Assembly: GCF_036507355.1 (NCBI RefSeq)
Contig: NZ_AP027877.1
Reading direction: 5' to 3' (one strand)
Length of the DNA: 64,000 nt
Origin: Escherichia coli
GTDB taxonomy: Bacteria > Pseudomonadota > Gammaproteobacteria > Enterobacterales > Enterobacteriaceae
Made by a program: the position numbers. Positions 21,801 through 24,800 of the stretch are shown piece by piece; within the stretch, counting starts at the first letter, position 1, and each line of letters starts with the position of its first letter.

Positions 21801-24800
21801 AGCCGAGCGCGGAAACGCCAGTGCGCATAACATCCATCGGGTGCGACGCCGCTGGTAAGGCTTCCAGCACAGTACGCACGTTAGCCGGTAAACCGCGCAG
21901 GGCTTTCAGTTTCGTTTTGTAAGCGGCGAGTTCGTCACGGGTCGGCAGTTTGCCGTGGATCAGCAGATGCGCCACTTCTTCAAATTCACAATGTTCCGCC
22001 AGATCAAGAATATCGTAACCACGGTAATGCAAGTCATTGCCACTTTTACCCACGGTGCAGAGCGCCGTATTGCCCGCCGGAACGCCAGAAAGCGCCACAG
22101 ATTTTTTCGGTTTAATGACATGGGTACTGTTTTGCAGGATCGTTGTGTCGCTCATGTTGTCCTCGTCATTGTTATCATTTGTAGGGTCGAGATTGTTGTC
22201 GGATGCGACGCCATGCGTCTTATCCGACCTACAGTTCACCCCGTAGGCCTGATAAGTCGCGTCAGCGGCGCATCAGGCATCGGTTGTCAAATACAACCAA
22301 CGGGCGTTTTTTATTTCGCCTGGCTACGGGCAAACAGGTCGTCGAGCTTCTCTTCGTACTGGTAGTAGTTGATGCTTTCGTACAGCTCGTTGCGGGTCTG
22401 CATGGTGTCGATGACGCTTTTCTGCGTGCCTTCCTGGCGCAGGACGTTGTAGACATGTTCGGCGGCGCGGTTCATGGCGCGAAACGCTGAAAGCGGGTAC
22501 AGCGCCATCGCGACATGAGCGCTGCGTAATTCGTCGGTGGTAAACAGCGGCGTGGCGCCAAATTCGGTAATGTTGGCGAGGATTGGCACCTGCACCGCAT
22601 CGGCAAACTGGCGGTACATGGCGAGTTCGGTAATCGCCTCCGGGAACAACATCTCGGCACCCGCTTCAACATAGGCCTGCGCACGCTCGATCGCCGCATC
22701 CAGCCCCTCTACCGCCAGCGCATCGGTGCGCGCCATGATCACAAAATCAGGATCGGTTTTCGCATCCACCGCCGCGCGGATCCGATCCACCATCTCCTCT
22801 TTCGAGACGATCGCTTTATTCGGACGATGACCGCAGCGTTTCGCACCAACCTGATCTTCAATATGCAATCCTGCCGCACCAGCTTTAATCATCGATTTCA
22901 CGGTGCGCGCCACGTTAAAGGCCGAAGAACCAAAACCGATATCCGCATCCACCAGCAGCGGCAGCGAACAAACGTCGGTGATACGGCGAATGTCGGTCAG
23001 CACATCATCAAGGGTAGAAATACCGAGATCGGGCAGCCCCAGCGACCCTGCCGCCACGCCACCGCCGGAGAGATAAATTGCCTGATATCCGGCACGCTGC
23101 GCCAACAGCGCATGGTTGGCGTTAATGGTGCCAACAATCTGCAATGGATTTTCTTTAGACAGTGCAGCGCGAAACGCTTTACCTGGAGAGTGTAGAGACA
23201 TAGCCCATCCTTTGTTATCAACTTGTTATTTGCGTTGATAAACACAAAGCAAGGGGTGTGCCACAATTGCCTTAATAAAATTAAATCTTTAATTTCAATT
23301 TGTTAGAGATAAAGTCATGAACTAATCCGCAAATATGCGTTTCAGTTAACGTTTCAGGCAATGTTTCACCGCGTTTCATTGCAACAATTATGAAACAAGG
23401 CTAAACCCAATATTCGGTTTCTTAACTTTGCGGTGCGCTATGGCACATCCACCACGGCTGAATGACGACAAACCGGTTATCTGGACGGTATCTGTAACGC
23501 GCCTGTTCGAGCTGTTTCGCGATATCAGCCTCGAGTTTGATCACCTGGCGAACATTACCCCTATTCAGCTTGGCTTTGAAAAAGCAGTGACCTACATCCG
23601 CAAGAAACTGGCAAACGAACGCTGTGACGCCATCATCGCTGCTGGCTCTAACGGCGCGTACCTGAAAAGCCGCCTGTCAGTGCCAGTTATTTTGATTAAA
23701 CCGAGCGGCTACGATGTGTTACAGGCACTGGCAAAAGCCGGAAAACTCACCTCTTCTATCGGCGTTGTCACTTATCAGGAAACTATTCCGGCACTGGTGG
23801 CGTTTCAAAAAACCTTTAATTTGCGCCTCGATCAACGTAGCTACATTACCGAGGAAGACGCACGCGGGCAGATTAACGAGCTAAAAGCTAACGGCACCGA
23901 AGCGGTGGTCGGTGCGGGGCTGATTACCGATCTGGCAGAAGAAGCCGGAATGACCGGAATTTTTATCTATTCCGCCGCCACCGTGCGCCAGGCGTTCAGC
24001 GATGCGCTGGATATGACGCGCATGTCGTTACGCCATAACACTCACGATGCCACCCGCAACGCCCTGAGAACTCGTTACGTGCTGGGCGATATGCTCGGTC
24101 AATCACCACAGATGGAACAAGTACGGCAGACTATTTTGCTGTATGCCCGCTCCAGTGCAGCGGTGTTGATTGAGGGGGAAACGGGGACGGGCAAAGAGCT
24201 GGCGGCCCAGGCAATTCATCGGGAATATTTTGCCCGCCACGATGCGCGACAGGGCAAAAAGTCGCATCCGTTTGTTGCCGTCAACTGCGGGGCGATTGCC
24301 GAATCGCTGCTGGAAGCGGAGCTGTTTGGCTATGAGGAAGGGGCGTTTACCGGCTCGCGACGCGGAGGCCGCGCCGGGCTGTTCGAAATTGCCCACGGCG
24401 GTACGCTGTTTCTGGATGAGATTGGCGAAATGCCGCTACCTTTGCAGACTCGCCTGTTACGGGTGCTGGAAGAAAAAGAGGTCACCCGCGTCGGCGGGCA
24501 TCAGCCTGTTCCGGTGGATGTGCGGGTCATTAGCGCCACTCACTGCAATCTGGAAGAAGATATGCGGCAAGGGCAGTTTCGCCGTGATCTGTTTTATCGG
24601 CTGAGTATTTTGCGTCTGCAATTGCCACCACTGCGCGAGCGGGTGGCAGATATTCTGCCACTGGCGGAAAGTTTTTTGAAAGTGTCTCTGGCGGCGCTCT
24701 CCGCCCCATTTTCTGCTGCATTACGCCAGGGGTTACAGGCAAGTGAAACTGTGCTGCTGCGCTACGACTGGCCGGGCAATATTCGAGAACTGCGCAATAT

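Follow-up and report, generated by a model that had tools for sequence, protein, structure and literature searches.

A sigma-54 promoter and a predicted PrpR enhancer array in the divergent prpR-prpBCDE control region of Escherichia coli

Analysis of a 64,000-nucleotide stretch of O157:H7-like Escherichia coli DNA (the 64 kb window) identified the segment 23249-23400, with high confidence, as the divergent prpR-prpBCDE control region, in which a sigma-54 promoter is accompanied by an array of GTTTCA hexamers predicted to be the PrpR enhancer. The prpR-prpBCDE control system is already known and the region is well studied; since the GTTTCA sites match the published PrpR binding sequence, the finding is correct but ordinary, and for the most part it re-discovers a sigma-54 enhancer/promoter pair of the textbook kind. 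The sole point of modest scientific interest is the frame of half-sites that emerges from comparison between genera. The K-12 sequence is identical at all of the elements considered here.

The protein encoded by prpR contains an N-terminal PrpR_N sensor (PF06506), an AAA+ sigma-54 interaction domain (PF00158) and a C-terminal HTH_8 domain (PF02954) according to Pfam, and the structure of the N-terminal domain has been solved (PDB 2PJU). Reading the region as an RNA element was rejected, as a scan of 22900-23800 against Rfam at E <= 1 gave no RNA family.

Table 1. Genes and regulatory elements of the prpR-prpB region (positions in the window; distances relative to the predicted prpB start site)
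Feature	Position	Strand	Remarks
prpB, methylisocitrate lyase CDS, first gene of prpBCDE	22311-23201	-	ORF list; NCBIfam NF008455 equivalog, E = 5e-169; RefSeq annotation, identical O157:H7 record
Predicted sigma-54 promoter of prpBCDE	23249-23263	-	TGGCAC (-24, GG at 23261-62), N5, TTGC (-12, GC at 23249-50)
IHF-like site TTTCAATTTGTTA	23293-23305	+	One mismatch to WATCAANNNNTTR; consensus scan; centre ~-62
H1, GTTTCA	23339-23344	+	~-102 to -107; of all copies nearest the promoter
H2, (C)GTTTCA	23351-23356	+	Orthologous to the left half of the Salmonella palindrome CGTTTCATGAAACG
H3, GTTTCA	23363-23368	+	Direct copy typical of Escherichia
24-bp block GTTTCA-T-TGCAAC-AATTA-TGAAAC	23373-23396	+	H4 at 23373-78; TGCAAC at 23380-85; H5, inverted, at 23391-96
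TAAACC, weak candidate inverted half-site	23402-23407	+	11 bp past H5; inside the conserved block CTAAACCCAATATTCGG (23401-23417)
prpR, sigma-54 enhancer-binding protein	23440-25026	+	NCBIfam NF011953 equivalog, 1009 bits; RefSeq annotation

The plus strand of the promoter is GCAAGGGGTGTGCCA, whereas the minus strand, TGGCACACCCCTTGCT, reads TGGCAC-ACCCC-TTGC, an exact match to TGGCAC-N5-TTGC(A/T) with the GG and GC doublets exactly 10 bp apart. The original prediction of an exactly spaced TGGCAC-N5-TTGC element preceding prpB was thus confirmed, and this is the single exact match in the window; about 0.12 exact 10-base matches are expected in 2 x 64 kb by our own arithmetic. Taken by itself, the motif is weakly significant, and it is position together with conservation that makes the predicted promoter convincing. 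On the strand of prpB it lies 48-62 bp upstream of that gene's ATG, and the gene for a protein with a sigma-54 interaction domain adjoins. The GCAA and TGCCA of the promoter show no change in 18 of the 18 Enterobacteriaceae aligned, and a similar sigma-54 element is present at the Providencia, Morganella, Herbaspirillum and MAG loci. In Salmonella LT2 the orthologous prpB site, TGGCATAGCCTTTGCTTT, was enriched in sigma-54 ChIP-chip and showed 45-fold rpoN dependence (PMC3844500). In genomic SELEX with the RpoN holoenzyme, the prpR/prpB spacer of E. coli showed a peak (PMC8743547); its coordinate, 347,864, belongs to a system that differs from NC_000913.3, and the peak is assigned here to the spacer as a whole. 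The -12/-24 numbering predicts a prpB start site at ~23237.

The IHF-like site is situated between the array and the promoter, and its core CA(A/G)-N4-(T/A)TA retains its place in the alignment: the C, A and final TA are unchanged in all 18 Enterobacteriaceae, whereas the spacer around them lacks conservation. In Salmonella, expression of prpBCDE requires IHF, as cited in PMC5566544, and IHF binding at the predicted site appears plausible. Relative to the predicted start site, the array occupies ~-102 to -159, within the ~80-200 bp upstream of a sigma-54 promoter where such an enhancer is expected. Array, predicted bending site and promoter have the classic layout of enhancer-binding-protein systems.

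The array had been described as four GTTTCA copies at 10-13 bp spacing with one inverted copy, and as containing a palindrome GTTTCAT-N10-ATGAAAC. Both statements proved accurate: the hexamers start at 23339, 23351, 23363 and 23373 on the plus strand, with start-to-start distances of 12, 12 and 10 bp and then 18 bp to the inverted TGAAAC at 23391-23396, and the palindrome is exact at 23373-23396. The description of the array as helically phased was approximately right, but the mean spacing is ~11.3 bp (about 11-12 bp) and not 10.5 bp, and the copies do not follow exact helical turns. Inside the palindrome we found an inverted half-site with one mismatch, TGCAAC, which the original prediction had missed and which probably forms a close dyad with the GTTTCA at 23373. 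With low confidence, TAAACC may be a further inverted half-site or, alternatively, part of the prpR promoter or leader.

GTTTCA and TGAAAC occur 38 times on both strands of the window, against 37.6 expected from composition, and five of these copies fall within 58 bp. The Poisson probability of such a cluster is ~5e-10 per 60-bp interval and ~3e-5 once all start positions are corrected for; the largest hexamer cluster in 300 first-order Markov simulations never exceeded three copies. Nowhere else in the window is a hexamer cluster as dense, and no other hexamer reaches five copies per 60 bp. Short direct repeats can come from slippage, and nothing else speaks for the array being a chance or neutral duplication product without function. 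A chance origin was rejected by the Poisson estimate and the simulations and is effectively refuted by conservation, the half-site positions being kept across the 18 Enterobacteriaceae while the flanks diverge. Within E. coli the array is far better kept than the adjoining spacer: in 4653 of 5220 records the 66-bp array has an identity of 99% or more, whereas megablast found the 71-bp spacer in no more than 3070 of 5426 genomes, 366 records reaching at least 99%. We consider the probability of an origin without function to be negligible.

The published PrpR enhancer consensus of Salmonella is CGTTTCATGAAACG, as given in Table 1 of PMC4987338 from the 2004 work of Palacios and Escalante-Semerena, and the same source cites PrpR footprinting on Salmonella DNA. 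This consensus is built from the GTTTCA hexamer and its inverse TGAAAC, so the published PrpR sites do not map elsewhere. The proposal that the array is an enhancer for PrpR is therefore supported, the hexamer being a half-site of the consensus that clusters upstream of prpR across lineages. Examined for PrpR half-sites, the region 23339-23396 yields five perfect copies in addition to the TGCAAC with one mismatch. The full 14-bp palindrome is absent in E. coli, where the orthologous position reads CGTTTCAGGCAATG with GGCAAT as the right half; the right half of the consensus is missing in all five Escherichia sequences aligned. Membership as a predicted PrpR enhancer rests on the half-sites, on the orthologous position and on the second dyad (GTTTCAT-N10-ATGAAAC), not on the consensus palindrome, and the hexamers that E. 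coli PrpR would contact are deduced from sequence. The 2004 abstract by Palacios and Escalante-Semerena reportedly speaks of "two sites with dyad symmetry".

Clusters of three to six hexamers were observed upstream of prpR in 14 lineages that range from Enterobacteriaceae to beta-proteobacteria, and across these the half-sites of the same orientation have a period of ~11-11.5 bp. Loci with such clusters come from nine named genera (Escherichia, Citrobacter, Salmonella, Kluyvera, Pluralibacter, Serratia-like, Providencia, Morganella and Herbaspirillum), a beta-proteobacterium and MAGs, and their intervening sequence is unrelated. A search for homologues of the N-terminal domain of PrpR gave for the most part truncated or frameshifted fragments, and four of their contigs were used, for upstream DNA only. 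The recognition-helix region of PrpR, G(I/V)SRTT(F/L)WRR, is kept in the same lineages as the hexamer clusters.

The individual positions demonstrate different degrees of conservation. Among the 18 aligned Enterobacteriaceae, H2 as CGTTTCA is unchanged in all, as are ATTGCAACA and TGAAACA of the 24-bp block, and H4 is unchanged except for GTTTTA in Kluyvera ascorbata. H1 is perfect in Escherichia and the Serratia-like locus, but reads GTGTCA in Salmonella, Kluyvera, Pluralibacter and most Citrobacter, and GTGCCA in Citrobacter R56. H3 has the perfect sequence in E. coli, E. whittamii, Escherichia sp. MOD1 and the Serratia-like locus, whereas E. albertii has ATTTCA and Kluyvera GTTCCA at the corresponding position, and it is absent in Salmonella. 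Providencia, Morganella, Salmonella and a beta-proteobacterium likewise have a close dyad of the form GTTTCA-(0 to 3 nt)-TGAAAC. The block that contains TAAACC is conserved in Enterobacteriaceae, and Salmonella has there TAAAAC, with one mismatch. The predicted enhancer thus keeps its half-site frame (offsets 0, 12, 24, 34, 41 and 52), and it is the single half-sites that vary in orientation and strength by genus. A fixed frame with changing half-sites bears on how flexibly the hexamer of an enhancer-binding protein docks on DNA.

The interior TTGCAAC and the downstream CTAAACCCAATATTCGG are as strongly conserved as the hexamers, which is compatible with a different reading, that the conserved block is mainly a cAMP-CRP site with the core promoter of the divergent prpR gene, PrpR binding a part of the block or elsewhere. 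A single CRP site in the spacer activates both prpR and prpBCDE (PMC3105977; PMC5566544), and only 44 bp separate the end of the array from the prpR ATG, so that the prpR promoter must overlap it. A paper on a PrpR/PprpB propionate sensor in E. coli Nissle 1917 further states that the PrpR operator is overlapped by the CRP site, whose mutation did away with PrpR regulation (Lee et al. 2005, as cited in PMC9452892). However, the best CRP-core matches in the array have 4/10 mismatches and are common in the window; the CRP core scan gave no match better than 3-4/10 mismatches, not distinctive, and the published CRP site was not located by consensus. Scans of 23150-23500 for sigma-70 promoters and terminators found none, and a relaxed -35/-10 scan for prpR was also empty. 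With no convincing CRP site or sigma-70 promoter from the consensus scans, CRP overlap and prpR control rest on literature statements. Moreover, the repeat unit is the PrpR half-site rather than TGTGA/TCACA, and beta-proteobacteria, in which the remainder of the region is unrelated, have clusters of the same hexamer upstream of prpR. As the main role of the block, CRP binding and prpR promoter function appear improbable, and are best seen as an added overlapping function rather than a replacement of the PrpR enhancer.

The left half-site of the consensus for the catabolite repressor/activator Cra (FruR) is TGAAAC/TGAATC, and the TGAAAC-containing repeats could in principle be Cra operators. 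In the minus-strand sequence CTGAAACGTTAACTG (23343-23357) the left half is perfectly Cra-like and the right half matches in 3/6 positions, and an earlier report of a Cra site in the prpB regulatory region is cited in PMC5829826. However, no full TGAAAC-GTTTCA palindrome occurs in the Cra orientation, and the pattern of the array tracks prpR across phyla. EMSA in the same study detected no Cra binding to prpB target DNA, whereas control targets were bound (PMC5829826), and this published negative result makes a Cra operator very unlikely, more so than a predominant CRP role.

The following mechanism is the best explanation, where the requirements for sigma-54, IHF, PrpR, 2-methylcitrate and CRP are taken from the literature, and the sequence elements, their significance, conservation and consensus identity from this analysis. 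Sigma-54 RNA polymerase would bind the -24/-12 element as a closed complex, and the C-terminal HTH_8 domain of PrpR would bind the GTTTCA/TGAAAC array ~-102 to -159 from the predicted start. IHF probably bends the AT-rich spacer at ~23293-23305, which would bring the PrpR oligomer to the polymerase. Binding of 2-methylcitrate, formed from propionate, would relieve the inhibition by the N-terminal domain, and ATP hydrolysis by PrpR would then open the promoter. The array, only 44 bp from the prpR start codon, must overlap the CRP-dependent prpR promoter and therefore probably has an effect on prpR expression as well. Propionate biosensors and the widely used propionate-inducible pPro expression vectors have this region at their core, which makes an explicit map of half-sites, spacer, IHF-like site and promoter useful for engineering.

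More tentatively, and with the odds rather against it, PrpR may read its enhancer by an orientation-tolerant, phased grammar and not as a fixed pair of dyads. A forward run of GTTTCA would converge on an inverted run around one close dyad, with copies of the same orientation ~11-12 (or 21-24, 32-35) bp apart, and the Escherichia and Serratia-like arrays (F0 F12 F24 ...) would be a working alternative to the double palindrome of Salmonella. No description of such a grammar was found in the literature examined, and two primary papers (one of 2004 by Palacios and Escalante-Semerena, the other by Lee et al., 2005) may already cover it. If it is true, the six DNA-binding domains of one PrpR hexamer would engage single half-sites along one face of the DNA.

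In the glnAp2 enhancer of NtrC, the three-site enhancer of NorR and the upstream activating sequences (UAS) of PspF and ZraR, several activator sites are located ~100-160 bp upstream of a sigma-54 promoter, looping is aided by IHF or intrinsic bending, and an AAA+ protein with a Fis-type HTH at its C-terminus acts as activator. The PrpR array is similar to these in its several sites at such a distance upstream of a sigma-54 promoter, in the probable help of IHF and in its AAA+ activator with a C-terminal HTH. It differs from the NtrC and NorR enhancers, where separate dyads each accept one dimer, in mixing direct and inverted hexamers with ~11-12 bp phasing. The recognition sequence is also different, and the signal of PrpR is ligand binding (2-methylcitrate) rather than phosphorylation. 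The PrpR operator of Xanthomonas citri, GTTGCAA-N2-TTGCAAC, lies upstream of prpB and has been described as a repressor site within the promoter of that gene (PMC12153269), and the PrpR of Xanthomonas oryzae was called an enhancer-binding protein in a review. The X. citri half-site GTTGCA/TGCAAC is one base from GTTTCA/TGAAAC and equals the unchanged TGCAAC of the 24-bp block; this resemblance may serve as a lead rather than a test, should the Xanthomonas protein belong to the PrpR_N/sigma-54/HTH_8 family.

The closest known system is the PrpR enhancer (UAS) of prpBCDE in Salmonella enterica, an orthologous locus with divergent prpR and prpBCDE, the same sigma-54 -24/-12 element and the same half-site GTTTCA/TGAAAC. 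The 24-bp block, GTTTCATTGCAACA(A/T)TTATGAAAC, is nearly identical between the two species, and no gaps are needed to align H2, H4, TGCAAC and H5. The abutting palindrome CGTTTCATGAAACG is found in Salmonella and the Citrobacter freundii group, whereas Escherichia has at this place a direct GTTTCA-N6-GTTTCA and, like the Serratia-like locus, carries direct repeats 12, 12 and 10 bp apart with a perfect GTTTCA where others have GTGTCA.

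The spacer between the divergent prpR and prpB genes contains both the promoter and the hexamer array. The prpC, prpD, and prpE genes follow prpB, and PrpR combines a PrpR_N sensor, an AAA+ domain for interaction with sigma-54, and an HTH_8 domain at the C terminus. K-12 MG1655 differs from this spacer at three positions, none within the mapped elements. The 351 bases around the control region match E. coli O157:H7 strain TR01 at 100% identity, and 5218 of the 5426 complete E. coli genomes contain them; plasmid-typed records, not chromosomes, hold 9 of the 5222 matches. An RNA-element reading was rejected, no Rfam family having matched at the prpR-prpB region.

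Features of the prpR-prpB region and of a second repeat cluster (prpB and prpR calls concordant among RefSeq annotation, ORF list, and curated family models)
Feature	Coordinates	Strand	Remarks
prpB, methylisocitrate lyase	22311-23201	-	
prpR/prpB intergenic region	23202-23439		238 bp
prpB leader TTGTTATCAACTTGTTA	23212-23241		between inferred start and ATG
IHF consensus TATCAACTTGTTA	23216-23228		perfect match
GTTGATA(A)	23234-23241		
sigma-54 element TGGCAC-ACCCC-TTGC	23249-23263	-	sole exact match in window
IHF-like site TTTCAATTTGTTA	23293-23305		one mismatch to consensus (consensus scan)
Hexamer block	23336-23397		conserved island
GTTTCA, H1	23339-23344	+	
GTTTCA, H2	23351-23356	+	
GTTTCA, H3	23363-23368	+	
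GTTTCA, H4	23373-23378	+	
GTTTCAT-N10-ATGAAAC	23373-23396		exact palindrome
TGCAAC	23380-23385		inverted half-site, one mismatch
TGAAAC, H5	23391-23396		inverted half-site
CTAAACCCAATATTCGG	23401-23417		between array and prpR ATG
prpR	23440-25026	+	
208-aa ORF	57646-58272		
GTTGAT-N4-GTTGAT-N14-ATCAAC-N15-ATCAAC	58256-58312		intergenic

The TGGCAC-N5-TTGC element proposed to precede prpB is present with exact spacing. With one mismatch allowed, the motif occurs in the window about as often as expected (8 matches versus 6.9), so the motif by itself is weak evidence, and position and conservation carry the weight: its GCAA and TGCCA are invariant in an alignment of 18 Enterobacteriaceae (Escherichia, Citrobacter, Salmonella, Kluyvera, and Pluralibacter). 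The Salmonella sigma-54 ChIP-chip site TGGCATAGCCTTTGCTTT (PMC3844500) is its ortholog, genomic SELEX with RpoN holoenzyme gave a peak within the E. coli prpR/prpB spacer (PMC8743547), and reviews name PrpR, 2-methylcitrate, sigma-54, IHF, and CRP as requirements for prpBCDE (PMC5566544; PMC10101121). With GC of the -12 element set at -12/-13 and GG at -24/-25, prpB transcription would start at ~23237, giving a leader of ~36 nt and placing the array at -102 to -159. The predicted IHF-like site would be centered at about -62; at its position a CA(A/G)-N4-(T/A)TA core is conserved in the 18 genomes, with C, A, and the final TA invariant. Given the predicted start and IHF site, the layout of promoter, IHF-like site, and array would be the standard geometry of a sigma-54 enhancer with IHF-assisted looping.

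The prpB leader is near-invariant in Escherichia, Citrobacter, Kluyvera, and Pluralibacter and differs at several positions in Salmonella. The perfect IHF consensus lies downstream of the prpB promoter. Together with GTTGATA(A) the leader forms a 7-bp inverted repeat, absent from Salmonella (-7.5 kcal/mol as RNA, z = -2.1), whose 5' arm would be cut by the inferred start site.

The four GTTTCA copies, the inverted copy, and the palindrome of the original prediction were all recovered. GTTTCA occurs 38 times in the window, as composition predicts, and five copies lie within 58 bp. The Poisson probability of this cluster is ~5e-10 per 60-bp window (~3e-5 corrected for every start position), and the biggest hexamer cluster in Markov simulations (n=300) had three copies; these figures rule out a chance origin. 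No other hexamer reaches at least five copies in 60 bp in the 64-kb window. Since start-to-start spacings are 12, 12, and 10 bp, the term helically phased is roughly correct. The TGAAAC repeats resemble the Cra half-site but are unlikely to be Cra operators. An EHEC study cites an earlier report of a Cra site at prpB; in that study Cra binding to prpB DNA was undetectable by EMSA (PMC5829826).

The GTTGAT/ATCAAC repeats, the second-tier hexamer cluster in this window, begin in the final bases of the 208-aa ORF, which is weakly similar to tyrosine recombinases, and might serve as a site for a recombinase or a regulator.

A one-mismatch scan identified the invariant interior TGCAAC, one base past H4, as a further inverted half-site, forming the close dyad GTTTCA-T-TGCAAC. 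Close dyads GTTTCA-(0 to 3 nt)-TGAAAC also occur in Providencia, Morganella, Salmonella, and a beta-proteobacterium, and Serratia has perfect TGAAAC at the exact TGCAAC offset. In 14 lineages a run of forward half-sites (F, offsets in bp) converges upon an inverted run (R; prime, TGCAAC): F0 F12 F24 F34 then R41' R52 in E. coli, F0 F12 F24 then R41 R52 in the Serratia-like locus, F0 F11 F22 then R31 R59 in the beta-proteobacterium, and F0 F21 then R27 R38 in Providencia rettgeri. Same-orientation distances form bands of 9-12, 20-24, and 32-35 bp, the outliers among 41 being 28 bp (between bands) and 44 bp (beyond them), and the mean resultant length is highest, at 0.78, when the period is 11-11.5 bp (n=41 non-independent pairs). 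The six HTH domains of a PrpR hexamer might engage phased half-sites whatever their orientation. The HTH region G(I/V)SRTT(F/L)WRR is conserved in the array-bearing lineages; the only PrpR structure is that of the N-terminal domain (2PJU), with none for the DNA-binding domain or a DNA complex.

Scanning with the PrpR N-terminal domain, one genome per species, gave 42 loci, and contig look-ups added four. Conserved islands in the otherwise variable spacer of the 18-member alignment are the prpB leader, the sigma-54 element, the core at the TTTCAATTTGTTA position, the hexamer block, and CTAAACCCAATATTCGG. The latter, conserved as strongly as the PrpR sites in Enterobacteriaceae, may belong to prpR as its promoter or leader, or may be an additional weak half-site (TAAACC); scans detected no sigma-70 consensus there. 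Among 5220 E. coli records, 4653 carry the 66-bp hexamer block at 99% identity or more, whereas the neighbouring 71-bp spacer has a megablast match in only 3070 genomes (366 records at least 99% identical), and thus the array is under much stronger constraint than its surroundings. Anchored on GTTTCATTGCAAC, half-site offsets are fixed throughout the family. H2, H4, and H5 are invariant except in Kluyvera ascorbata (GTTTTA at H4). Escherichia has perfect GTTTCA at H1 and H3, and GGCAAT or other unrelated sequence at the position of Salmonella TGAAAC; Salmonella and Citrobacter have GTGTCA at H1 (GTGCCA in Citrobacter R56) and no good H3, which in Kluyvera is GTTCCA. The Serratia-like locus, whose PrpR fragment shares 96% identity with a protein of Serratia nematodiphila, has GTTTCAgttaacGTTTCA-N6-GTTTCA in common with E. 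coli and continues with two inverted copies.

Several loci showed peculiarities. In the Serratia-like locus L044 (~2330-2480; also L046) a ~190-bp insertion, whose core (…agtccccaggaacatagacaactatgtgactgggg…) we take to be ERIC-like, separates the array from the prpR start. Morganella psychrotolerans (L039, ~2440-2500) carries, after the usual array and directly at the estimated prpR start, five tandem TGAAACnnn units of 9-bp period, which may continue into the coding sequence (reading MKHMKHLKRMKHLK). The prpR frame ends early there (393 aa) and in Providencia stuartii L037 (362 aa), which could reflect a frameshift or pseudogene. The protein search with the N-terminal domain of PrpR returned almost exclusively truncated proteins (P0001-P0120, 125-374 aa); on inspected contigs prpR, prpB, and prpC were broken into several short ORFs, typical of indel-rich long-read assemblies, and such fragment-rich clusters can mask full-length orthologs. 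E. coli contamination of a Bacillales assembly almost certainly explains L040, a 288-bp contig in an assembly of Alkalicoccobacillus porphyridii, whose encoded PrpR fragment matches the E. coli protein at 100% identity.

The PrpR enhancer consensus CGTTTCATGAAACG, tabulated in a review of Salmonella EBPs citing Palacios & Escalante-Semerena 2004 (PMC4987338), is the proposed hexamer abutting its own inverse. This palindrome lies exactly at the E. coli H2 position in Salmonella arizonae and the Citrobacter freundii group, where the GTTTCATTGCAACATTTATGAAAC block shared with E. coli follows after 10 bp. The 2004 abstract of Palacios and Escalante-Semerena reportedly describes 'two sites with dyad symmetry', which matches the palindrome plus this block. 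The published consensus, the orthologous sigma-54 site, the SELEX peak, and the reviews thus support the proposed reading, a sigma-54 promoter with the array as PrpR enhancer, and published sites do not map elsewhere. Because the array ends only 44 bp from the prpR ATG, a CRP site and the prpR core promoter must overlap it, an added function and not an alternative; overlap of the CRP site with the PrpR operator is also stated in a PrpR/PprpB sensor paper (PMC9452892). Consensus scans revealed neither element in the region.

How prpR-prpBCDE is regulated has been established, and for the Salmonella ortholog the sequence recognized by PrpR is published; the original observation is real, rightly interpreted, and already known. 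Our contribution is small, comprising a base-level comparative map, the recognition that TGCAAC belongs to the conserved half-sites, and the direct repeats of Escherichia and the Serratia-like lineage, in contrast to the palindrome of Salmonella at the same place. The E. coli TGCAAC is identical in sequence to the half-site of a palindrome to which a Xanthomonas citri regulator called PrpR binds (PMC12153269).
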